Source: Escherichia phage REP5
Sequence record: OQ174504.1
Strand: one strand, 5' to 3'
DNA length: 64,000 nt
Shown here: positions 35,741 to 53,280 of the stretch, piece by piece
Layout of the letters: each line of letters starts with the position of its first letter
Position numbering within the stretch: position 1 is the stretch's first letter
Notes under the pieces: model-generated
Database searches by the model: none
Seen by the model: the letters and a program-made list of their open reading frames with translations, nothing else
Told to the model about the DNA's origin: nothing
Made by a program: the position numbers and the translations under genes

Positions 35741-36269
35741 AGAAGTTGAAGGTAACTATCTAGTCCTTGATTGGAGTGATGTTCAAGAAGCACTCTCCAA
35801 AGAGAGTCTTAGCATACTAGAGCAACTTATCTTCTCAGTACGGCATATCAGAGAAGTTAAAAATGGTAAAGAGCCACTTGAAGGAATCTTTGTAGAGAAG
35901 TCTTATCCGTTCTATGAAGACACCTTGCAGAAAGTTAAAATGTACTTTAAACAGAAGAACCGTAAAGTGGTCACTATGGTATCTCTTGGTGGACAGAGTA
36001 TGTCTGTGATGGAAGATATCAACCCTAAGAGACCGAGTAAAGGCGTTTGTATAAAAATCACAGGACATGAAGAGTATATCTCAGTGGATGACTTTAGTGC
36101 ATTCTGTAATGGGTCTTGTGTCTTTAATGGTTTTCACTATGATATCCGAGTATACCCAATCAAGGGAGATGATATCATGATGCAGGTATTCGATAACAAC
36201 AATGGATTCACTCATTTTTATCAGACAACCAAGTCATCACTGAAGACAGTTCTGGAAACACTGATTTAA
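35730..36269 (+). CDS. hypothetical protein
   Basis: 179-aa ORF; terminator downstream. Confidence 0.4.
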   Translation: MKIKEVEGNYLVLDWSDVQEALSKESLSILEQLIFSVRHIREVKNGKEPLEGIFVEKSYPFYEDTLQKVKMYFKQKNRKVVTMVSLGGQSMSVMEDINPKRPSKGVCIKITGHEEYISVDDFSAFCNGSCVFNGFHYDIRVYPIKGDDIMMQVFDNNNGFTHFYQTTKSSLKTVLETLI

Positions 36270-36280
36270 AATATCTTAAG

Positions 36281-36308
36281 AGCCTCCTTAATTGGGGGCT
36301 TTTTATTG
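36281..36308 (+). terminator. rho-independent terminator ending plus-strand block
   Basis: AGCCTCCTTAATTGGGGGCT followed by TTTTATT. Confidence 0.6.
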
Positions 36309-37920
36309 AGTAAAATTTACGAAATTTATATTTTTTATAAAATTTTATCGGTTGTCCCAACCTCTGGGTCACCATCATATGTGAATAAAAATATCTATCC
36401 TTCTTAACAACCTTCTTAATCTTACTCTCTATATATAGTTATATAGTACTATATAGTATCTTAGTATCTATCTAGTGGTCTTAATAGCCCTCTGTATAAG
36501 CCTTCTAACAAGCCCTCTAACAATCCTTCTAAACACTCTTCTAACAAGCCTTCTTAACAACCTATACAATCACCTTAACCATCTCTCTATACCCTCTTAG
36601 AAGCTCCTATACACCTCTTAATCTCTAGGTTACCTGTGTTACTTAACAGTAACCCATTATGTCAGCTATGTTACCCTCTATAGGTGTTCACTAGGTATTA
36701 CTAAGCCTCTATATAGACTGTTTTAACAAACTTAACAGGAATATCTTTACAGACCTTATCTCACAAGGTCTAACACGGTACTAACAAGGTATCTTATAAG
36801 CCTGTTTATGCCTGTATTTTTAAAAGACTGTCTAGGTAATTATTCAGAATTTTAAAATTTTTATAAAATAGGACTATCAAGTCATTTTTTAGGGTCTTTG
36901 AAGGAACTCAAAAATATCTGTAGAAGATGTATATCTGCTTGGTAGCCCTTAACAGCTCCCTTACAAGTACTTTGCAAAATTTTAAAATATCCTTAACAAT
37001 CTCTTAACAACTCTCTCAAGCTTTTAACATCTCTTTAGAGGTCTTAACAGATTCTTAACAGAACTAACAAGGCTGTAACAAGTTCTTAACAGTCAATACA
37101 TGGTCTTTACAGAGTCTTAACAGATGACTAACAAGAGCTAACAAGTTAATTTTTAAGAGTTATTTTGTTAAGATAATTAACAAGTTCCTAACAAGTGTTT
37201 AATCTTTTTAACAAGCTATTAACATGGTCACTATCTCTGGTCTTATCGTTCCCTTTCTTTCTTAGTGATTCTCTAAACATACCTCTTAAAAGCCCTCTAT
37301 AGCTCTTTGTAAGCTCTTTTAAGCCTCTTCCTAGTAATTACACCCCAACTATACAGACACCTATTTATAAGGCTTTACAGGAGCTTTAAAGGCTATGTCA
37401 AAGACTCTTACAAGGCTTTTACATGATTTTAACAGAGATTTAACAAGGGGCTAACAAGTCTCTAACAAGTGCCTTAAAAGCATAACTATGTAGGGATTGT
37501 TAAGAAATTGTTAAGAAAATGTTAAGGGGGCTAGCATTTACGTAACTTTTAAGCTACTTCAAAGTAACTTTATAGCCCCTATAACATACTTTTAAGACAC
37601 TATCAAGCCCTTTTTAATAGTTCACAAGATAGCTAACGAGATGATAAAGCTTACACCCTTATAAGGTTCTTTTAAGGCTCTAGAAAGCTCTATAAAGGGC
37701 TTTTTAAAGGGAGTTAATGCAATCCCTTAAGTTGGGTTGATAAGGCTGTTATAGGGCTTTATAGAGCGTTTAAATGGTTGCCCTTCCCTTTCGGGTTATG
37801 GGCTTATATTTAAGTTGATTTGATAAAAGGCTATAGGGTAGACTATAGAGTTATTGCTTTTTAAGGTCTGATAAGATTCTGGAAAGGAAAGGGAAAGGGT
37901 TGTATAAGGGATTTGATAAG
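36300..37920. repeat. 1.6-kb ORF-free repeat-dense region (TTAACAR / CTAACAAG family plus AT-rich TATA runs)
   Basis: No ORF of 60 aa or more on either strand; roughly 18 TTAACA and 9 CTAACAAG copies counted by eye between 36400 and 37460; CTATAGGG/TTTTAAGG/GGAAAGGG-type repeats 37500-37900. Confidence 0.7.
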
Positions 37921-37921
37921 A

Positions 37922-37946
37922 CGTAAAAAAGCCCCTATGAGGGGCT
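37922..37946 (-). terminator. rho-independent terminator ending the small-gene cluster
   Basis: Minus-strand hairpin AGCCCCTCATAGGGGCT followed by TTTTTT. Confidence 0.6.
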
Positions 37947-37964
37947 GTATAAAGGTATCTGGGG

Positions 37965-38234
37965 CTATTTAGCCCCGTTGCGTCGATTAGTTAGTGCCTT
38001 CTTTGTCGTAGTACAGGGAGACAATTTTTCTCCCCAATAGTGATAAGTATAACCATCCTTGAGAACTTCTTGTTTTGTTTCCTCCCAGAACTTTTCTGAA
38101 GGATTATAGCCTTTGATAGTCTGACTGATAAGACCTTTCACCATTTCAAAGGCGTTATCAGTTCCTACAATGTCAAATTTAACATCCAGAGAGGAAAAAC
38201 CGAACTCGTTAGCAGTAGCGCGGATAGTTGCCAT
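37965..38234 (-). CDS. hypothetical small protein
   Basis: 89-aa ORF with cassette-type RBS. Confidence 0.45.
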   Translation of the reverse strand: MATIRATANEFGFSSLDVKFDIVGTDNAFEMVKGLISQTIKGYNPSEKFWEETKQEVLKDGYTYHYWGEKLSPCTTTKKALTNRRNGAK

Positions 38235-38300
38235 TTTTGAATCTCCTAGTTTAAGGGTTTTACTTAGTGGGGAAGGTCATTCCCTCCCCGTTGATTGACA
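38235..38300 (-). promoter_or_regulatory. repeated upstream cassette, copy 1 (class A hairpin)
   Basis: CTTAAACTAGGAGATTCAAAA-ATG core; hairpin GGGGAGGGAATGACCTTCCCC; upstream TTGACG-17-TAAATT. Confidence 0.5.
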
Positions 38301-38302
38301 AT

Positions 38303-38833
38303 TTACAGATTTTTGATTGTCTCGTCAATATCTTTTTCAATATCTTTTAAAGTTTTTTCTAAGTTCTTGATATTGAAAGATAAGCCTTCTCCCAGTGTCT
38401 TAGAGTAACCACTAGGACGTGAGTTATATAATTCGATTTCTTCCACTTCGAAGAGACTAACCAACTCACCGCTTACACTGTAAGCCATAGAAACAGTATT
38501 TACAGGGGCTTTATAGAACTTGTTTAAGGTCTTGATAGAACGCTCATAAGCCATTTTATAACCATTTAAAAGGTTTTTAACATGATTACGAACGTTTTTA
38601 CACTCATCTAAGTAAAGCCCTAAAAACATCGGGAGAAGTTCCGCGACAGCTTGCATAAAGTGAGAGACTACAACAGTAGAAACATTACGACGATGAACGT
38701 AATAAGCCCCGTTTTCTGATTTGGTGATGGTTGCAAAGTGTACACCATTGCAGAGAAATTCGTATGTGTCTTTTACAGGTTTAGACATTACAGCATTTGA
38801 ACGAATGAAGTTGATAGCTTTGAACTTGTTCAT
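38303..38833 (-). CDS. hypothetical protein
   Basis: 176-aa ORF with cassette-type RBS. Confidence 0.45.
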   Translation of the reverse strand: MNKFKAINFIRSNAVMSKPVKDTYEFLCNGVHFATITKSENGAYYVHRRNVSTVVVSHFMQAVAELLPMFLGLYLDECKNVRNHVKNLLNGYKMAYERSIKTLNKFYKAPVNTVSMAYSVSGELVSLFEVEEIELYNSRPSGYSKTLGEGLSFNIKNLEKTLKDIEKDIDETIKNL

Positions 38834-38930
38834 TTTTGAATCTCCTAGTTTAAGGATTTTATTCAGTGGGGAAGGTCATTCCCTCCCCGTTGATTAGTAA
38901 TTTACTTGTTTTGATATCTGATTGCAAGCA
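38834..38930 (-). promoter_or_regulatory. repeated upstream cassette, copy 2 (class A)
   Basis: Same RBS core and hairpin; TTGCAA-17-TAAATT upstream. Confidence 0.5.
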
Positions 38931-39057
38931 ATTTTTTAAGTTTATCTTTAAAGAAATCTTTTAAGTGAATCCCTTTAAGATAAACCCCCTCGAACAAAGT
39001 TACCAATGTCAAGAGGGATTGTCAACACTTTTTTAGAAGTTTTTTGTAAGTTCTTGA

Positions 39058-39399
39058 TTAGCTTATAAATATTTTTTCAGGTTTTACGTAGCTGATACGT
39101 TGATTTTTTAGCAGGTCATCCCAGATTAGCGCGGCAATATGAGAATAGCCGGATTCACGTAGAAGCTTCATTGCTTTACATCTCGTTTCAAAGCGGGTTG
39201 CATAGTGCTCACTATTTAAAACCGTTTTAATCCCTTCGTTGTCTGTATGGATAATCTGCATCACTTGGAAGGGGCTTGCTTCCTCGCCTTTATTCCATTG
39301 CTCAAAGTATTTTAGGCACTGCATAGGTGTCATCTTGTCGCTTACTTGGGTTGACCAAGATGAATCCGGTTTATTGGTAATTACAGTTACGTGAGCCAT
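39058..39399 (-). CDS. hypothetical protein
   Basis: ORF 39058..39444 re-started at the Met following the cassette RBS (MAHVTVI...). Confidence 0.4.
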   Translation of the reverse strand: MAHVTVITNKPDSSWSTQVSDKMTPMQCLKYFEQWNKGEEASPFQVMQIIHTDNEGIKTVLNSEHYATRFETRCKAMKLLRESGYSHIAALIWDDLLKNQRISYVKPEKIFIS

Positions 39400-39485
39400 T
39401 TTAGAATCTCCTAGTTTAAGGGTTTTATGTAGTGGGGGGGTCATTACCTCCAGTTGATTAGTAATTTACAGATTTTTATCCGGCT
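39400..39485 (-). promoter_or_regulatory. repeated upstream cassette, copy 3 (class A variant)
   Basis: CTTAAACTAGGAGATTCTAAA-ATG; hairpin GGAGGTAATGACCCCCCC. Confidence 0.45.
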
Positions 39486-39488
39486 TGT

Positions 39489-39722
39489 CTAGTCTTTTTC
39501 TATGATAATTTCATCTTGTCCGTCAACACTGTCAAAATAAACGCCGTCGCTGTCTTCTGTCTTAAAGTAACACTGAATGTCATCACTGGCGGGGTAGTCT
39601 TGTCTTGCTATCTGGCAAACCTGAATGGCATTTTCTTTACTCCCTGTAAACTCCCCAAGCTCTTCGAAATCACATGAATGGCCATTACAAATAGAAAGGA
39701 TGAGGTAAACGGTTGTAAGCAT
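39489..39722 (-). CDS. hypothetical small Cys-containing protein
   Basis: 77-aa ORF; different upstream hairpin (GCCCCTTGTAGGGGC). Confidence 0.4.
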   Translation of the reverse strand: MLTTVYLILSICNGHSCDFEELGEFTGSKENAIQVCQIARQDYPASDDIQCYFKTEDSDGVYFDSVDGQDEIIIEKD

Positions 39723-39788
39723 GATTAAAGCCCCCTAAAAGCCCCTACAAGGGGCTGAATAGTGTTTATAAGGTGATTGCATAGGTTT

Positions 39789-40331
39789 TTATAAAAAGCT
39801 CTTTAAATCCTCTTCTGCGATGTTTCCCGTTAGTGTGTCCATGATGTCACAAAAAACCTGAATGCTGTCCGACTGCTGAACACTTTTAGCAAGTAGTTCT
39901 AATGTCTCATCAAGATAATTCATATTTGGGTTATCCAATGAAGGGAGACAAAAAGGCGAAAACATCGCATTAAACTCAGTTACGTAAACCTTTTTAATCC
40001 AATTTAAATCGAAGTATTCCGTAAAACTTGCCACGTTCGCCATATTATCACAAGAATAATCATCATTTAACTCATCTTCTGGAATATCAAGTTCCAAGAT
40101 AACAATATTTTGGGTTTTCATCTGGAAAGCTGCGGTGATGGCGGCATTGCCCAGAGCTTGCTGGATACCTTCAGAGATTATCTCTTCCTCATCGTCGCCA
40201 TAGATTTTATTTTCTGGATAAACGTAAAAATTCCCATCCATATCCGAACAATTCCATGCACCTGATGGCTTATCACCGTTATTAATCAGGTTGCAGAAGT
40301 TTTCTTGAGTAGTACCGTGAAAGCATTTCAT
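39789..40331 (-). CDS. hypothetical acidic protein
   Basis: 180-aa ORF with cassette-type RBS. Confidence 0.45.
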   Translation of the reverse strand: MKCFHGTTQENFCNLINNGDKPSGAWNCSDMDGNFYVYPENKIYGDDEEEIISEGIQQALGNAAITAAFQMKTQNIVILELDIPEDELNDDYSCDNMANVASFTEYFDLNWIKKVYVTEFNAMFSPFCLPSLDNPNMNYLDETLELLAKSVQQSDSIQVFCDIMDTLTGNIAEEDLKSFL

Positions 40332-40418
40332 TTTTGAATCTCCTAGTTTAAGGATTTAGTGGTAAAGCTCTTTATCTGGGGTTTACTTTATCGAACTATA
40401 AACCCCTTGTAAAGTACT
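40332..40418 (-). promoter_or_regulatory. repeated upstream cassette, copy 4 (class B hairpin)
   Basis: RBS core plus hairpin GGGGTTTATAGTTCGATAAAGTAAACCCC and AAAGTACTTT palindrome. Confidence 0.5.
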
Positions 40419-40622
40419 TTATTTGTTATTTTTGACAACTTTTAAAACTGCACGGTAACCTAAGCAATACGAATCACCGAAGAGAGACCGACCCATGAAG
40501 GAGTCCTCTGTAATATCTTTCGCCGTGACGGTTTTTTCTACGCCGTGAAAGAGAACTACATCACCAACTTTAATATCTTTGATGTGCGTTGTTTCAATGG
40601 TTAAACCGTTAATAATAGCCAT
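40419..40622 (-). CDS. hypothetical small protein
   Basis: 67-aa ORF, starts MAII. Confidence 0.4.
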   Translation of the reverse strand: MAIINGLTIETTHIKDIKVGDVVLFHGVEKTVTAKDITEDSFMGRSLFGDSYCLGYRAVLKVVKNNK

Positions 40623-40715
40623 TTTTGAATCTCCTAGTTTAAGGGTTTTTATTTAGTGGGGAAGTCATTTCCTCCCCGTTGATGTGTAATTTAATCTATC
40701 TAAAAACCAGTGTCA
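40623..40715 (-). promoter_or_regulatory. repeated upstream cassette, copy 5 (class A)
   Basis: RBS core plus hairpin GGGGAGGAAATGACTTCCCC. Confidence 0.5.
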
Positions 40716-40724
40716 AGAAAATTT

Positions 40725-41129
40725 TTAAAGTTCTGCATAAATTGCATCGCAGATATTACGGAAATCGTGATTTGGCAAATTACGCTGCAACCAAGTGGCG
40801 AAAAAGTCAGCGATTGCATAATTAGCATCATACTCAACGGATAGCCATACTTTCACGGCGAATCTAAACATTTTTAAATCAAGCTCTTTATTCATTACCT
40901 TAGATTTGCCCAACATGTCGGCCATTTCGTATTGTGCACCGTCTAGCGTGATACCTGCTGCAACGTCAGCCAGTGAGTTTTTTACGCTTTCAACGTCTAA
41001 GATAACACTTTGAATCTTCCCAATAATGTTGTGCAATGTTTCATCTGGTGCTGATGACGTAATAACATTAATCCGGTTAACGGTCAAACGTGCTTTTAAG
41101 ATTGATAATTCACGGTTATTAATAGCCAT
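40725..41129 (-). CDS. hypothetical protein
   Basis: 134-aa ORF, starts MAIN. Confidence 0.45.
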   Translation of the reverse strand: MAINNRELSILKARLTVNRINVITSSAPDETLHNIIGKIQSVILDVESVKNSLADVAAGITLDGAQYEMADMLGKSKVMNKELDLKMFRFAVKVWLSVEYDANYAIADFFATWLQRNLPNHDFRNICDAIYAEL

Positions 41130-41214
41130 TTTTGAATCTCCAATTTAGGATTTAGTGGTAAAGCTCTTTATCTGTGGATTAAGGTAACAACTTTTAAACC
41201 CCTTGTAAAGTACT
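41130..41214 (-). promoter_or_regulatory. repeated upstream cassette, copy 6 (class B variant)
   Basis: CCTAAATTGGAGATTCAAAA-ATG plus AAAGAGCTTTACCACTAAATCC block. Confidence 0.45.
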
Positions 41215-41487
41215 TTACACTAAATGCAGCTTTTTACCTTTTACCATGATGTAACTTGATGCGCTATTGCTGTAAACATCCTGATAAATTCTGCGCAAAC
41301 GTCCTTCGTAGTATACTTTCCAACTAGTTGGAATCTTTTTACCGTATCCGGTAGCAGTTTTTTGGAATCCTGCAAGTTGCCAATCCAAAATATGCTGTTC
41401 AGCTTGTAAATCCTCGAAGTGCATTACACCGTTCACGTAGTGGCGTAGGGTTACGTTTAAGGTGCGACCGTTGTTAGTAGTATGCAT
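41215..41487 (-). CDS. hypothetical small protein
   Basis: 90-aa ORF. Confidence 0.4.
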   Translation of the reverse strand: MHTTNNGRTLNVTLRHYVNGVMHFEDLQAEQHILDWQLAGFQKTATGYGKKIPTSWKVYYEGRLRRIYQDVYSNSASSYIMVKGKKLHLV

Positions 41488-41573
41488 TTTGAATCTCCTA
41501 GTTTAAGAGCTTTATGTAGTGGGAGGTGATGACCTCCCGTTGATTAGTAATTTACTTGTTTTTAAAATCAAAA
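41488..41573 (-). promoter_or_regulatory. repeated upstream cassette, copy 7 (class A variant)
   Basis: RBS core plus perfect hairpin GGGAGGTCATCACCTCCC. Confidence 0.45.
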
Positions 41574-41906
41574 TCAAGAAAAATTTTTTCGTTTGTTCAG
41601 TTCTTGAACAATTACAGCGTAGTAGTCTTTTAAGTCACTGATATTTAAAGCATTTATCAGGGAATTATAATCATCGACTAACTGAAAATCCTCTTTGAAG
41701 ATGTCACTAATCTGGTAGGTTTTCGCTTTAAATCTGAAGCTCATTTCTAGCCGCTTTATTTGCTCATCACTGAGGCGCCCTAGAAAGCTTTCTACAAGGT
41801 TATTGCTAACCTGCTGTGTGATTGCCTTACTTGCCAGATTATAGGCTTTATATGCCTTATATAGTGCCAGAATGGCTATGATTGCGGTGATGCCAGTCAT
41901 TAGCAT
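41574..41906 (-). CDS. hypothetical membrane-anchored protein
   Basis: 110-aa ORF with hydrophobic N-terminus; overlaps upstream gene (no own cassette). Confidence 0.4.
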   Translation of the reverse strand: MLMTGITAIIAILALYKAYKAYNLASKAITQQVSNNLVESFLGRLSDEQIKRLEMSFRFKAKTYQISDIFKEDFQLVDDYNSLINALNISDLKDYYAVIVQELNKRKNFS

Positions 41907-42196
41907 GGTGTTACCTCTTTTTGTGAGATTTTGCCATTTACAGTTATCTCATAGGATTCTAATAAGTCACTTTTAGACTTTACTGGACTTTTAAAAGTAT
42001 TATCGTAAATATTGACTTGCAATACAGGTTTTTTATACTCCCTGCAACTATTCCATAAACAAATCACTACACGACGGCCTTTTATTTTGCCGTGTAACCA
42101 TTCCATAACATCATGATTATTTCTTGATGTTTCAATGAAATCAATTTTGTTGAGTAACTTGCTTAGATTTTCACGGACTTTATTTGATAATTTCAT
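41900..42196 (-). CDS. hypothetical small protein
   Basis: 98-aa ORF with cassette-type RBS. Confidence 0.4.
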   Translation of the reverse strand: MKLSNKVRENLSKLLNKIDFIETSRNNHDVMEWLHGKIKGRRVVICLWNSCREYKKPVLQVNIYDNTFKSPVKSKSDLLESYEITVNGKISQKEVTPC

Positions 42197-42284
42197 TTTA
42201 GAATCTCCAGTTTAGGATTTAGTGGTAAAGCTCTTTATCTGGGGCTTAAGATATCAGCTTTTAAGCCCCCTGTAAAGTACTTTA
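42197..42284 (-). promoter_or_regulatory. repeated upstream cassette, copy 8 (class B)
   Basis: RBS core plus hairpin GGGGCTTAAAAGCTGATATCTTAAGCCCC. Confidence 0.5.
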
Positions 42285-42542
42285 TCAGATTAAATTGCCA
42301 GTTAATGATAAGTGCATTTTATAGCCTTGCTTAGTGAATACGTTCACTTTACCGAGTGTTTCCACACCTTTAAAAAGGTTGTTTGAACTATGTTTTAAGA
42401 TTAAACGTTTATCAACCTTTACGCCCCATCTTACAGCAGATTTTTTCCCGTTGTCAATCACTTTCCCGCATAACTTTTTAGCCATAACGCGAGCGTCATC
42501 ACGAGTTTTTGCAGAAATTACAACGTTTTTGATAATAGCCAT
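42285..42542 (-). CDS. hypothetical small basic protein
   Basis: 85-aa ORF, starts MAII. Confidence 0.4.
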   Translation of the reverse strand: MAIIKNVVISAKTRDDARVMAKKLCGKVIDNGKKSAVRWGVKVDKRLILKHSSNNLFKGVETLGKVNVFTKQGYKMHLSLTGNLI

Positions 42543-42630
42543 TTTTGAATCTCCAATTTAGGATTTAGTGGTAAAGCTCTTTATCTGGGGCTTACTTTAT
42601 CGAACTATAAGCCCCTTGTAAAGTACTTTA
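42543..42630 (-). promoter_or_regulatory. repeated upstream cassette, copy 9 (class B)
   Basis: Near-identical to copy 4 (hairpin GGGGCTTATAGTTCGATAAAGTAAGCCCC). Confidence 0.5.
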
Positions 42631-43011
42631 TTAGTTAATTTTGAAAATTGTCACATAACCATCACTGCCGATTATTTGAGACACTCCAGCTTTTTCCACT
42701 TGATAGCCCATATTTTCAAGATGATAAACAGCATCATCGTAACCATATGCGCCGCCCTGATAACGTCTCTTATTGCATTTTATCAGGTTTTTACCACGTC
42801 CAGCAAGCGCATTCAGTACGGCTTTTTCACTTGAAAGAGTACCGTCTAACATGGTTGCCGTGTAATGGTTAATCCTGTTACCATTTACGTCATATTTAAA
42901 ATTGAATGCGTGAACAACAATCAATTTGCCGTTAAATTTTTCATCAAGTGACTTCTCCAGTGCGTTGCGGAAGTTGTCTTTGTTGATGAATTTCGGTGCA
43001 CGATAAGCCAT
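42631..43011 (-). CDS. hypothetical protein
   Basis: 126-aa ORF. Confidence 0.45.
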   Translation of the reverse strand: MAYRAPKFINKDNFRNALEKSLDEKFNGKLIVVHAFNFKYDVNGNRINHYTATMLDGTLSSEKAVLNALAGRGKNLIKCNKRRYQGGAYGYDDAVYHLENMGYQVEKAGVSQIIGSDGYVTIFKIN

Positions 43012-43100
43012 TTTTGAATCTCCTAGTTTAAGGTTAGTTAATAAAGCTCTTTATCTGGGGCTTAAGATACCAACTTTTAAGCCCCCTGTAAAGTACTTTA
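43012..43100 (-). promoter_or_regulatory. repeated upstream cassette, copy 10 (class B)
   Basis: RBS core plus hairpin GGGGCTTAAAAGTTGGTATCTTAAGCCCC. Confidence 0.5.
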
Positions 43101-43307
43101 TTAGATTTCGTAGTAGTAAACTGCTGTCTGTCTTATGTGCTTTCTTGTGATTCTCGTAAGGTAGCAATTAGAATTTATAGCCGTTTCTACATGGTTGCAA
43201 TAGTCAGTTTCTGATATCCTAGTCCATACGTCACAAATTTTCATGTAGAAACGTTTTACATCTGTATCAACGTTGGTTGTAACCATCAATTCACGGCAGT
43301 AAGTCAT
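43101..43307 (-). CDS. hypothetical small Cys-rich protein
   Basis: 68-aa ORF, first gene of the cluster. Confidence 0.4.
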   Translation of the reverse strand: MTYCRELMVTTNVDTDVKRFYMKICDVWTRISETDYCNHVETAINSNCYLTRITRKHIRQTAVYYYEI

Positions 43308-43348
43308 TTTTCAGTTCTCCAGTTTAGGAAGTGGGCTTGTCGCCCCGT

Positions 43349-43377
43349 CTGATGCAGATACTATAAAAACCCGTTCA
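43349..43377 (-). promoter_or_regulatory. sigma70-like promoter for the small-gene cluster
   Basis: Minus-strand TTGACT, 17-nt spacer, TAGTAT, with AT-rich upstream tract; ~40 nt upstream of first gene. Confidence 0.35.
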
Positions 43378-43565
43378 AGGAGTCAATAAAAATTTTAAAA
43401 ATATTTTTGGCAAAAATGTAATGAAACGGGCGCACGCGACTACCACAAAACAGAACTACAATCAAGAATTATTTTTCAATCCGCTACAAATTTTTATGTT
43501 GACTTTTCTTTTCAGATGTGGTAGCCTCGTGAGAAATGGCGACATCCCCACCTACACCCACCTAC

Positions 43566-43742
43566 CTGCACAATTCTAAAATGATTTTTCTTGCCCGACC
43601 TGATTTTTATCTGCACGTTTTGAAAATGAAAAAGCTCTTTGGAGATTACCTGCACAGTTTGAAAATGAATTTTCTCTTTGGAGTTCAAAATTCTCTCTAC
43701 AGATTTCTCTATAGAAATCTACCTGCACAATCCTGAAATGAA
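43566..43742. repeat. four ~20-bp direct repeats CTGCAC(A/G)NTTNTGAAAATGA(A/T)
   Basis: Copies at 43566, 43611, 43650, 43723; CTCTTTGGAG also recurs twice between them. Confidence 0.6.
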
Positions 43743-43814
43743 AAAGCCCTCCTTACCTGAAAAATTTACCAGATAAGAAAGGCTTAACCTATTGTGAATA
43801 TCCTACAGAGTTTC

Positions 43815-44600
43815 TTAGTTATTTGCGTCTAAGAAGGTAACTTCTGGTGAAGAGAAGATTGCCCCAATATCCTCATCAGTTCTTGCATAGATGTAGGCAT
43901 CTGCATCACTGCCAAATGTTACTGCAATCCTGTGATTGCTCTTCGACAGGTGGGTAACTAGAGCGTTACTTAGAGACATCTTTTCAACCGGAGGGTTACT
44001 TTGATGTACCTTACCTTTTCTTCGTCTGAAGAGGGTAACTGCATTATCTGAGAACACTGCTACGCCTGCAAAGTATTCTGGTTCACAGTAGTTCTTCCAA
44101 CCTGAGTGTAACTCATTATACATTTTTGCTTCATAGACATACAGATAAACATCTACACTCTTCATTGCCTGATTAATGATAACTGTGACAGCTTGAGGGT
44201 CAAGTCCACCGATACCTGCGCCAATCATAGGTAACCCAACTTTCTTCAACTGATTAACTTCACAGTATCTGTTAAGTTGCTTCAAAGATGACTCTAAAGC
44301 ACTGTAACGGGCATCTTTACCAGTCTTAAGCTGAGTGTAAAGATTAGCTATACGACCTTGTTTTAAACGCGCTACAGAGAAATTACCTAGTAAATTTTCA
44401 CAGGGTTTGTGGCCTATACCACCTGCATACAGATAAACTTCTGTATCGGTCTCATATGCTTTTGGGTAAAGTTTAGAAATCTTAGCAGCGATACCTGCAC
44501 CCATTAAGTTCATACAGTTGCAACCGTGACCAATGATATCAAACTTACCCTTATCAAATGCGGAGAAGATATCCCCATTGATGATTTTTACAATACCCAT
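43815..44600 (-). CDS. macro-domain (ADP-ribose-binding/processing) protein
   Basis: 261-aa ORF; N-terminal IVKIINGDIFSAF..DIIGHGCNCMNLMGAGIAAKI resembles macro-domain P-loop region. Confidence 0.5.
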   Translation of the reverse strand: MGIVKIINGDIFSAFDKGKFDIIGHGCNCMNLMGAGIAAKISKLYPKAYETDTEVYLYAGGIGHKPCENLLGNFSVARLKQGRIANLYTQLKTGKDARYSALESSLKQLNRYCEVNQLKKVGLPMIGAGIGGLDPQAVTVIINQAMKSVDVYLYVYEAKMYNELHSGWKNYCEPEYFAGVAVFSDNAVTLFRRRKGKVHQSNPPVEKMSLSNALVTHLSKSNHRIAVTFGSDADAYIYARTDEDIGAIFSSPEVTFLDANN

Positions 44601-50834: not shown

Positions 50835-50913
50835 CTTATTACTCTCTCTTGTTAGTTAATAAATCATTTTGTGAGGATATTCTAAGGGGCTTTGAAGCCC
50901 CTTGTCAAACACT

Positions 50914-53280
50914 TTAATCGTAAATTGTAGTCCCTTCTGGAACACACTTCACATCAAAGCCCAAGAACTTGCTCACTTCGATGGGTGACACTTTATTCCA
51001 ATCTAAATGAGAAAGCAAGAAGTTTTCTTGTTTTCTTTTTGAAAGATAGTTTGTCACCTTAATAACCATACGGTCACCAGCTTTTTTGATTTTCTTGTAC
51101 AGCTTTGTATCGTTGTCAAGGCATTCTTTCAAAGTTTGCAACCTGCTAACAGTGTAAGTGTATGCAAACGGTGCAGCAACGTATTGGATTTTACCAAACA
51201 TTGCCTCAACAGCATCTTCATTACCTTCTAAGAAGATAGTTTTATTTGTGTCTCGTGAATAGCAATAACCACGAGAAATCTTCCTGTTATTGAACGTAAA
51301 GTTTCTGGCAATAATCCAATTGCTTGTAAGGTCAAGGACACCATTCATATAGATACGTGTCATATACCTGTTATGGTTAATCCAGTGAACATCAGTTAAG
51401 CTGTCGTTCAAGAGCTTCTCATCTACTTCAATCCAGTCTTCTGGTATCTTTTTCCAATTTGCTTTTCGGAAAACATATACTGTCTTTCCAATGACATTGG
51501 CAACTGACTTAGCTACATCTTCTGGAGATGAGCAAAAACATTCGCCATCAACTGTGTCGCCTACTGCCTTAATATAAAGCTGAGGCTCTTCAATCGTATC
51601 TAAGTCTTCTGACACCTCTTTGTATGAAGCTACACCTTCTGCTGGAACAGCTTTCCAAAGTTTTACAACACCTCTTACAGCTTCTTTACGCTGATAATGA
51701 TGTTCATTATCAGACATCTTAACAATCTTTAACAAGCTTTTATCAAGTTTGTGCAGATTGATTAAGTCGTCTAACTCTTTCTCTGTAGAGAATACAAAGA
51801 CAATACCATTATATCTGTGAAACATACTCGACTCACTGGCATAGTCTCGACATGCACCACGCAAGATTTGATTGCGTCCTACAGTCTTCTCAGTACCGTT
51901 TTTATTGCGACGGTCATTGATAACAAACAAAAACTGTTCAATTTGGCTTTTGCGCATTGCACCAAAGATATTGAACATACTTGCCTCTTGAGTGTAGGAA
52001 AGTGATGTTGCACGAATCTTACTCTCTAAAGAGTTGAACTTGACATAAGCAACTGGGTCATAAAGATAATCTACTTTAGGGATGTTGTTTCCGTTCCTAT
52101 CAACCTTAATATTACCTTTACCGTCACGTTCATAAATGACTGAGCCGTCTTCTGCGTAGATAATTCCACGACGAATGTTTAGTAATTCTTCTTCCAGAGA
52201 ATCAAGCTTAACACCTCCCCACTCTAACTTTGGACACACAGCATTAAACATCTCTCGTGAGTTCAAACGTAACTCAGCATAAGCCTGTGCAGCATCCATG
52301 AGTGTAGGTTGACTGTTAACTTTCTTGATAACATCCTTTGTAATTGCTTCAGTTATCTTTTTAGTAGCCTCGATGATAACATTTTTTGTCGTGTCATTCA
52401 TCTGCAATGCTTCACGAGAAGCTGCAATAGCAACTGAACCAATAGGCATGTAGATGTTTACAAGGTCTACGCTCCTACGGAAAAACTCTGGCAAGACTTT
52501 GAAGAAATCATCACCAAGTAACGCTTCCATGTTAACTGGATAGGCAATATTACCCATCACCACATTGAATTCTGTCCTGTTACTACTAGAGCGCCAGCTT
52601 TGCTTATGAATCATGGCATCATAAACACCTTCTTCACGGGCAATGACATTCATATCTGCTAATACATCATCGTATACAATGTTGCTTTCTGGTTTTACAG
52701 TGAAGTATGAGTATACGTTACCAGCTTCTTCAAAGAACTTTGAAATACGGTGGTCAGCAACTGCTACACGTACAGCTAAACCATTAGGCTCTTTTGTTGG
52801 GTTAGTGGTCAGCTTAGTTACTTGAGGGATACCATTCTCAAGATAAACAGAGTACTTGTTAACAACACCATCAACATAGCTAGACACTGTGAATGACTGA
52901 GCAATTGCAAATGGAGATTTTGAACCAATACCCATTGCACCAATGTAGTCATTAGAGTCATTCTTCGTAGAAGCCCCGTAATTTAGATACAAACTCATAA
53001 CTTTATCATGAGTCAATCCAGTTCCAAAATCACGAACTTCGAAGTAAGGCTCAAAACGAGTAGGTAAATGCACATGGAATGGGATGTTCTCTTTTCCAGC
53101 TTCTTTCTGAGCATCTACTGCGTTACATGACAGTTCACGAATAACTGCCCTTTCTTTAAAGGTATACACACCAGAACTCAAAAGGCTGAACATTTCAGGT
53201 GTCATTGTAATCTGTGCTTGAGACGTCTCTAAAGAAGTTGAACTCTTAATCACTTCTGCGTGGTTGTTTACCATGCGCAT
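50914..53280 (-). CDS. rIIA: rIIA-like protein (GHKL ATPase fold)
   Basis: 788-aa ORF; N-box-like ELSCNAVDA and G1-like DFGTGL motifs. Confidence 0.65.
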   Translation of the reverse strand: MRMVNNHAEVIKSSTSLETSQAQITMTPEMFSLLSSGVYTFKERAVIRELSCNAVDAQKEAGKENIPFHVHLPTRFEPYFEVRDFGTGLTHDKVMSLYLNYGASTKNDSNDYIGAMGIGSKSPFAIAQSFTVSSYVDGVVNKYSVYLENGIPQVTKLTTNPTKEPNGLAVRVAVADHRISKFFEEAGNVYSYFTVKPESNIVYDDVLADMNVIAREEGVYDAMIHKQSWRSSSNRTEFNVVMGNIAYPVNMEALLGDDFFKVLPEFFRRSVDLVNIYMPIGSVAIAASREALQMNDTTKNVIIEATKKITEAITKDVIKKVNSQPTLMDAAQAYAELRLNSREMFNAVCPKLEWGGVKLDSLEEELLNIRRGIIYAEDGSVIYERDGKGNIKVDRNGNNIPKVDYLYDPVAYVKFNSLESKIRATSLSYTQEASMFNIFGAMRKSQIEQFLFVINDRRNKNGTEKTVGRNQILRGACRDYASESSMFHRYNGIVFVFSTEKELDDLINLHKLDKSLLKIVKMSDNEHHYQRKEAVRGVVKLWKAVPAEGVASYKEVSEDLDTIEEPQLYIKAVGDTVDGECFCSSPEDVAKSVANVIGKTVYVFRKANWKKIPEDWIEVDEKLLNDSLTDVHWINHNRYMTRIYMNGVLDLTSNWIIARNFTFNNRKISRGYCYSRDTNKTIFLEGNEDAVEAMFGKIQYVAAPFAYTYTVSRLQTLKECLDNDTKLYKKIKKAGDRMVIKVTNYLSKRKQENFLLSHLDWNKVSPIEVSKFLGFDVKCVPEGTTIYD

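Follow-up and report, generated by a model that had tools for sequence, protein, structure and literature searches.

The DNA analyzed here is a stretch of 64,000 nucleotides from Escherichia phage REP5 (sequence record OQ174504.1), referred to as the window, which includes an array of 13 consecutive small open reading frames (ORFs) on the minus strand, located between positions 43307 and 37965 and coding for products of 67 to 180 amino acids. The record of phage REP6, a Felix O1-like myovirus (OQ174505.1, 87,152 bp; Ounavirinae, Felixounavirus), is 100% identical to the window, with the same coordinates; in its annotation all 13 products are hypothetical proteins. The genes, named g1 to g13 from high to low coordinates, are served by 11 upstream cassettes that end in a core of the general form CCTTAAACT(A)GGAGATTCAAAAATG. 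The original prediction that 11 of the 13 genes are preceded by a shared core was confirmed by motif counts, which gave 10 copies plus a variant ahead of g1: the exact core CTTAAACTAGGAGATTCAAAAATG occurs seven times at three or fewer mismatches, with zero occurrences expected by chance, and the variant TAAAYTGGAGATTCWAAAATG accounts for three further occurrences, all of them on the minus strand within 38232-43032. A weaker variant, CCTAAACTGGAGAACTGAAAAATG, is found at g1 (start at 43307), and the two genes that have no core are g5, which overlaps g4, and g10.

The two GC-rich hairpin types described earlier were both recovered, in five copies each. Class A cassettes are found ahead of the genes starting at 41487, 40622, 39399, 38833, and 38234 (g6, g8, g11, g12, and g13), class B cassettes ahead of those starting at 43011, 42542, 42196, 41129, and 40331 (g2, g3, g4, g7, and g9), and the eleventh cassette is the variant that precedes g1. 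When the REP6 copies of each class were turned into nhmmer profiles and these were run against the whole 87,152-bp genome, the matches were confined to the array. The 3′ end of the cassette consists of a Shine-Dalgarno sequence and start codon arranged as GGAG, 8 nt, ATG in all copies. A further similarity, thought to extend into the first codons, holds for the six of 11 cassettes that are followed by ATGGC (Met-Ala) and not for the remaining copies. The elements of the array are listed below; hexamer pairs are written with the length of their spacer.

37965 to 43386, minus strand: whole array, 13 small genes and 11 upstream cassettes, running from high to low coordinates.
43305 to 43386, minus strand: entry cassette of g1, A-like variant; TTGACT-17-TATAGT at 43386-43358, small hairpin GGGC-gacaa-GCCC at about 43346-43333, core CCTAAACTGGAGAACTGAAAAATG at 43328-43305.
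43009 to 43100, minus strand: class B cassette of g2; TTTACA-17-TATCTT at 43092-43064, hairpin at 43085-43057, lower stem TAAAGTACTTTA / TAAAGAGCTTTA, core at 43032-43009.
42540 to 42630, minus strand: class B cassette of g3; TTTACA-17-TAAAGT at 42622-42594, hairpin at 42615-42587.
42194 to 42284, minus strand: class B cassette of g4; TTTACA-17-TATCTT at 42276-42248, hairpin at 42269-42241.
41574 to 42196, minus strand: g4 and g5, which overlap (translationally coupled) and are not separated by a cassette.
41485 to 41577, minus strand: class A cassette of g6; TTGATT-17-TAAATT at 41577-41549, hairpin GGGAGGTCATCACCTCCC at 41538-41521.
41127 to 41217, minus strand: class B cassette of g7; TTTACA-17-TACCTT at 41209-41181, upper hairpin degenerate in REP6, GGGGTTTAA...TTAATCCAC (z-score -0.72).
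40620 to 40716, minus strand: class A cassette of g8; TTGACA-17-TAAATT at 40716-40688, hairpin GGGGAGGAAATGACTTCCCC at about 40677-40658.
40329 to 40421, minus strand: class B cassette of g9; TTTACA-17-TAAAGT at 40413-40385, hairpin GGGGTTTA...TAAACCCC at 40406-40378.
39489 to 40331, minus strand: g9 and g10, likewise not separated by a cassette; their 66-nt spacer has a hairpin, AGCCCCTTGTAGGGGCT, at 39755-39739.
39397 to 39491, minus strand: class A cassette of g11; TAGACA-17-TAAATT at 39491-39463, hairpin degenerate in REP6, TGGAGGTAATGACCCCCCC, at 39452-39434 (z-score +0.62).
38831 to 38927, minus strand: class A cassette of g12; TTGCAA-17-TAAATT at 38927-38899, hairpin GGGGAGGGAATGACCTTCCCC at 38888-38868.
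38232 to 38328, minus strand: class A cassette of g13; TTGACG-17-TAAATT at 38328-38300, the -10 hexamer of which encloses the g12 stop codon, and a hairpin at 38289-38269 that is again exactly GGGGAGGGAATGACCTTCCCC.

Class A cassettes open with an A-rich tract, after which come the hexamers TTGNNN (or TAGACA) and TAAATT with 17 nt between them, about 10 nt that have ATCAAC at their end, and a hairpin, GGGGAGGG-loop-CCTTCCCC, which is followed by ACTAAATAAAACC and the core. The pair TTGNNN-17-TAAATT, reported earlier for several copies, was found upstream of the hairpin in all five, once as TAGACA. Class B cassettes begin with the stop codon of the upstream gene and continue with TAAAGTACTTTA, CA plus one variable base, an upper hairpin made of GGGG(C/T)TTA, an 11-13-nt loop, and TAA(G/A)CCCC, and then AGA, TAAAGAGCTTTA, CCACTAAATCC, and the core. 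Two characteristics of this class are absent from the original prediction: the palindrome AAAGTACTTT, which adjoins the hairpin in each class B copy, is the 5′ arm of a longer lower stem, and the hairpin loop contributes the downstream hexamer of a promoter-like pair, TTTACA-17-TAnnnT.

Promoter profiles were compiled from 28 loci anchored on the phosphatase gene located upstream of the array plus VpaE1, REP9, Bas63, Mordin, phiEa21-4, and Felix O1. Among 113 unique class B copies TTTACA is 100% invariant, and the hexamer exactly 17 nt downstream has T in 94%, A in 94%, three positions that are close to random, and T in 96% of the copies, with a G at -14 in 87%. This pattern spans at least six loop sequences (TATCTT, TAAAGT, TAAGAT, TAGTAT, TACAGT, and TACCAT) and looks like an extended -10 (TGnTAnnnT) located inside a hairpin loop. 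The 88 unique class A copies show a -35 of composition T99 T82 G99 A74 C60 A66, preceded by the A-rich tract, a variable spacer, and a -10 that is TAAATT in 72 copies. A simple promoter scan of REP6 picked out all five class B and three class A copies. Promoter prediction over the cassettes, which had been proposed as a check, found sigma-70-like pairs in both classes, and the profiles support the view that both carry the sequence signature of sigma-70 promoters.

RNA folding of each hairpin predicted stable structures for nine of the 11, the g7 and g11 copies being degenerate, in agreement with the hairpins originally described; the z-scores lie between -3 and -4.4 in eight of 11 copies, and the intact g13 hairpin reaches only -1.4. 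In the class B fold a 3x3 internal loop separates a lower stem of about 11 pairs from an upper one of 8-9 pairs, a total of about 23 bp of interrupted hairpin with a folding energy of -23 to -28 kcal/mol and z-scores of about -3 to -4, whereas class A forms a 7-8-pair stem. Across 48 diverse class B copies the paired cells amount to 97.2%, against 31-57% in slid controls, and three pairs are altered on both sides; the double changes include G-C to U-A replacements, found in the lower stem of eight copies and in the upper stem of three phiEa21-4 copies. The covariation score of 0.099 (0.056 for shuffles) was reached by none of 500 shuffles. Within REP6 the g9 and g3 hairpins differ by one compensatory C-G to U-A change. 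The sequence of the class A stems varies, and almost all of them are still stable. The Erwinia phage phiEa21-4 has the same design with altered stems, GGTGTTTA...TAAGCACC, and the core CCCTTATAAAGGAATCAAA. Overall, the cassettes are conserved as well as, or slightly better than, the adjacent coding DNA. A search of the region 36200-44000 with the Rfam covariance models gave no match at E ≤ 1.

Gene maps were drawn for 23 relatives and Felix O1, with the junctions determined by chained blastn. Strict collinearity, which would speak against a shuffling module, was not found: the differences between relatives consist of whole units of cassette plus gene, and the junctions lie inside the cassettes. 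The gene content ranges from nine genes in Felix O1 to about 20 called ORFs, arranged on one shared backbone in which the units x12, x14, x17, x24, x22, x39, g1, g3, g8, and g12 are variably present. The gene x12, absent from REP6, lies between g3 and g4 in 16 loci, x14 between g12 and g13 in 11 loci, x24 between g5 and g6, and x22, x39, and x41 ahead of g11; x17 is found before, after, or in place of g8, and g1, g3, g8, and g12 are each absent from some loci. The order in Felix O1, with the cassette classes in brackets, is g1 [B] x12 [B] g4 g5 [A] g6 [B] g7 [A] g11 [A] g12 [A] g13.

At most junctions of gain, loss, or allele swap the alignments on either side share 20-110 bp that lie within a single REP6 cassette, a pattern that we read as the signature of recombination between direct repeats. 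Loss of g8 has left its class A cassette right before the ATG of g9, and in Felix O1 it is joined to g11. In many relatives the entry promoter comes with a complete class A hairpin and would drive g2 directly. In the absence of x12, g4 usually has an x12-type hairpin, as in REP6, whose g4 cassette has the hairpin type found ahead of x12 in the relatives that bear this gene; the crossover must therefore have taken place within the 3′ part that the cassettes share. In g9 and g13 divergent alleles start right after a well-conserved cassette, and g2, g8, g9, g11, and x17 are each found behind class A in some loci and behind class B in others. As for the junctions that lack a cassette, g4/g5 is intact in 22 of 23 relatives and g9/g10 in 23 of 23; nine of the 10 cassette-bearing junctions are polymorphic. 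In one relative (locus L025, 7000-7865) the unit formed by a class B cassette and g3 is tandemly duplicated (437 bp, 99.5% identity), which is either a fresh product of unequal crossover or re-integration or an assembly artefact. The same locus has two class B cassettes back to back with no gene between them; these and the duplicated g3 are compatible with mini-circles, without being proof of them. A candidate transposition of x23 to a second slot was rejected, the two copies being only distant homologues.

Single cassettes of both classes were compared by blastn (word size 11) with 50,697 phage records. Class B was found in 274 records and class A in 245, in about five places each, and the matches all belong to Ounavirinae, namely Felixounavirus, Mooglevirus, and Suspvirus, plus the Erwinia Kolesnikvirus in the case of class B, except for two records labelled as Staphylococcus and Campylobacter phages, which are probably chimeric or contaminated. 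One of them, GU169904.1 ("Staphylococcus phage SA1", 147 kb), includes 80% of the present Felix O1-type region at 89.7% identity. Parts of these elements have been noticed before. The Felix O1 genome paper listed, without comment, direct repeats of 57 bp and 39 bp (PMC3185647), which are parts of class B and class A, respectively, and the announcement of phage Mordin mentioned a 26-bp repeat upstream of eight genes, which it likened to the start-associated sequences (SAS) of mycobacteriophages (PMC4611695).

We consider it probable that the cassettes are self-contained expression signals and, collectively, sites at which genes are gained, lost, and swapped. Promoter activity, start points, the roles of the hairpins, and the mechanism of recombination are what we infer from the patterns described above. 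Each cassette would provide a promoter of the host sigma-70 type, a GC-rich stem-loop, and an AU-rich leader with a strong Shine-Dalgarno sequence. In class A the predicted start lies in ATCAAC, about 7 nt past TAAATT and 3-5 nt before the hairpin; because of this expected position the hairpin, about 10 nt past the -10, would cap the 5′ end of its own transcript and be expected to stabilise the mRNA. It is known that 5′-terminal stem-loops stabilise mRNA in E. coli. In class B the stem-loop would lie between the -35 and a loop-borne -10, with a predicted start about 7 nt after TAnnnT, at the A of CCCCAGATAAAG; since the -10 is in the loop, transcripts from the class B promoter itself would be devoid of the hairpin, and only read-through RNA coming from the upstream gene would hold the complete interrupted structure of about 23 bp. 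The 10 to 20 units of about 90 bp, all in direct orientation and with the last 25 to 45 nt common to all, could support homologous recombination within one genome or between co-infecting Ounavirinae, which would delete, insert, duplicate, reorder, or replace single genes leaving the neighbours unharmed. After such an exchange each gene would keep or gain a complete expression signal.

Several observations weigh against this interpretation. The -10 elements are weak (TAAATT, TATCTT, and TAAAGT), and we found in the literature no transcript map for any Ounavirinae or Felix O1-like phage, so that promoters and starts are based on sequence. Not all changes respect the cassettes: the indels x18 and x21 and the g12-g13 deletions in two relatives (L012 and L017) are not cassette-bounded, and selection against gene disruption would by itself bias the surviving junctions toward intergenic DNA. 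Within-genome homogenisation was not found: copies from different slots of the same genome show identities of 0.72 for class A and 0.83 for class B, those from different slots of different genomes 0.73 and 0.83, and those from the same slot in different genomes 0.82 and 0.88. This comparison gave no sign of concerted evolution or gene conversion between the cassettes of one genome; recombination between cassettes must therefore be occasional (episodic), and their similarity is probably kept by selection on function. Finally, no U-tract follows the hairpins of either class and the terminator scan flagged none of them, which makes a terminator role in the style of the promoter-early stem-loops (PeSLs) of T4-type phages doubtful. 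The possibility that the cassette hairpins are intrinsic terminators was rejected, the tails being ACUAAAUA in class A and AGAUAAAG / CCACUAAA in class B, and the only hairpins with the characteristics of an intrinsic terminator bracket the array:

43744 to 43785, minus strand: intrinsic-terminator-like hairpin plus T-run, placed after the phosphatase gene as the end of the upstream unit; it corresponds to t13 of Felix O1 (PMC3185647, Table 2).
37930 to 37946, minus strand: intrinsic-terminator-like hairpin, AGCCCCTCATAGGGGCT, followed by TTTTTT, that closes the array.

The location of these terminators at the two ends, and the strong consensus promoter TTGACT-17-TATAGT at the head, would also suit an array that has no internal promoters and is transcribed from 43386-43358 as one polycistronic early message. 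The hairpins would then be processing or stability elements, class B a T7-type RNase III site and class A a protective stem after cleavage, the core would be a translation-initiation enhancer similar to SAS, as the Mordin announcement had likened it (PMC4611695), and recombination would be a passive side effect. The shape of class B (about 11 bp, 3x3 loop, 8-9 bp) is the general form of the T7 early RNase III sites, which set the early cistrons apart from one another, and both of its helices are conserved with compensatory changes. What this explanation leaves unaccounted for is the presence of T and A in 94% of the copies at loop positions 17 nt past an invariant TTTACA, with free neighbours, as well as the class A arrangement of TTGACA-like and TAAATT hexamers across a variable spacer with an A-tract. 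The different peak times of neighbouring Felix O1 genes argue weakly in the same direction (PMC3185647). In that work, in which the source of the downstream promoters was stated not to be known, neighbouring array genes peaked at either 5 or 25 min in end-point reverse transcription PCR (PMC3185647). A correlation of cassette class with expression time in Felix O1 was looked for and rejected, as class A and class B genes each peak at 5 or 25 min. Overall we regard a single polycistronic message as rather unlikely; processing of read-through RNA and internal promoters could coexist, and the two readings are not exclusive.

Conservation of the core well beyond the needs of a Shine-Dalgarno interaction raises another explanation, that the conserved sequences are operators at which a phage or host protein, such as a DNA-binding regulator or a RegA-like translational repressor, shuts off the whole early array jointly, with the arms and AAAGTACTTT as its binding sites and not as elements of an RNA fold. 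Protein binding was favoured for the extended inverted repeats of cluster K phages (PMC3203893), and a separate conserved array of four repeats lies just upstream of the cluster. Set against this, no candidate binding protein was identified, and AAAGTACTTT is not kept in the distant group (AAAGTGCTTT, AAATTGCTTT) even though the pairing of the arms is, including G-C to U-A double changes; RNA polymerase itself is a simpler account of the promoter-like pattern. Operators seem improbable to us. Even less can be said for the idea that the cassettes are leftovers of tandem duplications of one ancestral gene and its upstream region, which would neither function by themselves nor take part in recombination. 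They are direct repeats in one orientation with roughly gene-sized spacing, and a unit duplicated recently in tandem is seen in one relative, but the proteins fall into 13 families by BLAST and into 10 PHROGs for the 10 scanned, which means that the cargo genes are not detectable paralogues, and the non-coding cassettes are conserved across genera as well as or better than coding DNA, in a position-specific, promoter-like manner. We regard this origin as very improbable. A bolder version of the preferred interpretation, in which the cassettes are expression signals and sites of gene exchange, appears doubtful to us in its entirety: class B would be a dual insulator, its loop promoter starting a fresh transcript and its T7-like RNase III substrate of about 23 bp cutting off read-through, class A would be a 5′-hairpin stabiliser, and the whole would constitute an integrase-free gene-cassette platform for the exchange of single host-takeover or anti-defence genes throughout Ounavirinae, possibly via mini-circles. 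If it were true, every gene would be autonomous both transcriptionally and post-transcriptionally.

The closest known counterparts are the PeSLs of RB49/phi1, PST, and nt-1 (PMC2839356, PMC4122927), which are also conserved intergenic composite units of about 100 bp that directly precede small ORFan genes in an early region that is variable (hyperplastic), as the REP6 array is variable among relatives. In both systems the upstream gene has its stop codon in an AT-rich stretch, followed by a sigma-70-like -35/-10 pair (PMC2839356), a GGGG...CCCC stem-loop is placed between the -35 and -10 (class B) or just past the -10 (class A), the Shine-Dalgarno sequence and ATG are at the 3′ end of the unit, and insertions, deletions, and replacements between relatives end in the units. 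The two nevertheless have no detectable sequence similarity: neither class had a blastn match in T4-type phages among the records searched, and the resemblance is therefore either an analogy or a homology too old to be detected. PeSLs exist as about 50 loosely similar copies in several hyperplastic regions, whereas here two stereotyped classes are confined to one 5.4-kb array, with a leader of 25-45 nt that hardly differs between copies, an extra conserved lower stem that brings the class B hairpin to about 23 bp, and no U-tract after the stems. Promoter activity, terminator activity, and mini-circles have been demonstrated for PeSLs, one stem-loop of RB49 having lowered lacZ expression as strongly as rrnB T1 (PMC2839356). 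The original suggestion of a recombination module of the PeSL type is supported by architecture and evolutionary behaviour. All features open to a test by sequence agree with the published description of PeSLs, apart from relatedness, which is absent, and the terminator role, which is doubtful. No paper was found in the literature that ties the Ounavirinae repeats to PeSLs.

The SAS of cluster K mycobacteriophages and their extended form, ESAS (PMC3203893), are likewise short, asymmetric, conserved sequences with a Shine-Dalgarno core, found some nucleotides upstream of the ATG of many unrelated non-structural genes, about half of the SAS copies having an inverted repeat just upstream. The SAS, however, is a 13-bp consensus, GGGATAGGAGCCC, located 3-7 bp before the starts and scattered over half a genome, and shares with the core of the cassettes, CCTTAAACT(A)GGAGATTCAAAA, only its position and AGGAG. 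The imperfect 17-bp inverted repeats of ESAS had no support for RNA pairing and no recognised promoter, whereas the arms of the cassettes pair (97% of cells) and show a promoter pattern. With the T7 early RNase III sites the cassettes share a hairpin that an internal loop interrupts, that spans about two helical turns, and that is located between consecutive early cistrons and before a strong ribosome-binding site. Only class B, with 11 + 8 pairs around the 3x3 loop, has the helix length of these sites (about 20 bp or more with an internal loop), class A having 7-8 pairs. The T7 sites, R0.3 to R1.3, lie within a proven polycistronic RNA and have no promoter in them. Morons and integron cassettes resemble the array in that single accessory genes with their own expression signals enter or leave a fixed genomic platform, but morons are not thought to rely on conserved flanking repeats and integrons require an integrase and attC sites, whereas the junctions observed here look like plain homologous recombination between repeats and imply no recombinase of that kind.

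The cargo proteins gave few leads. As anticipated from sequence inspection, none of the 13 array proteins, nor any of six accessory proteins, had a Pfam match above threshold, and the first 10 of the 13 proteins all fell into PHROGs of 'unknown function', 10 different ones. All-against-all BLAST separated the 13 proteins into 13 families, and paralogy among the cargo genes was rejected. One gene deserves mention:

39789 to 40331, minus strand: g9, 180 amino acids (gp107 of Bas63), predicted ADP-ribosyltransferase-like fold.

Its residues H5, Y36/Y38, and E80 are invariant or nearly so, and a sequence search of the PDB with g9 found no match. The modelled similarity to ADP-ribosyltransferases hints, weakly but consistently, that at least one of the cargo genes may code for a host-modifying enzyme; that the others are host-takeover or anti-defence genes is a guess.

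Other features were observed in and around the array. The interval between the phosphatase terminator and the first array promoter (43563-43741, minus strand) has the motif TCATTTYnAAnnTGTGCAG(G/A)TA in four direct copies, at +77, +150, +189, and +234 nt past the phosphatase stop codon. The motif is unique in the 87-kb genome, and the number, spacing, and sequence of the copies are kept in nearly all of 29 Ounavirinae loci, including the group of about 65% identity; the copies may be iterons, or sites at which a regulatory protein binds. The sole near-miss of the profile search (50855-50917, minus strand; TAAAGTGTTTGACA-aGGGGCTTcaaAGCCCCt-TAGAAT) is a cousin of class B that lies outside the array and has a promoter-like TTGACA-18 nt-TAGAAT pair around a GC hairpin; it lies between genes for 788-aa and 369-aa products, has no core leader, and may indicate that the hairpin-in-promoter is a more general design in REP6. 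The long g11-g12 spacer (224 nt) has a TTGACA-17 nt-TAACTT pair at 39025-38997 and an ORF of 36 aa with a TTG start (38902-39012, minus strand), whose end, ...DKLKKLLAIRYQNK, resembles the C-terminus, ...DKLFDKKLLAIQNQNK, of x21, a membrane-like 46-aa product found in the same slot in three relatives (L023, L025, and L026), and which is probably a decayed remnant. Past the array, about 1.6 kb (36270-37930) that separate its end from a convergent plus-strand unit ending at 36269 have no ORF of 100 aa or more. In Felix O1 (NC_005282.1, L036; 2984-3301) the annotated start ATG of ORF19 (Felix01p037) is inside a class A hairpin (ATGACCTTCCC), and in all other phages the orthologue starts 45 nt downstream, past the core; the annotation of this start codon is probably wrong.

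Until now T4-type phages were the only ones in which repeated promoter/stem-loop units had been documented to shuffle small early genes, and cassette-bounded gene exchange was not previously described for Ounavirinae, a scope that takes in Felix O1, Bas63, Mordin, SUSP1, and phiEa21-4, about 260 genomes in all. The finding explains repeats left uninterpreted in two genome papers, gives predicted promoters, and corrects start-codon annotations. It also pinpoints the variable cargo genes as the place to seek host-range and anti-defence functions in a genus, Felixounavirus, that is widely used in the biocontrol of Salmonella and E. coli, and for engineering the cassettes are natural landing pads for gene insertion. 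That the same design occurs, without sequence similarity, in another subfamily of myoviruses suggests that it is a general and convergent way of maintaining an exchangeable toolbox of accessory genes.

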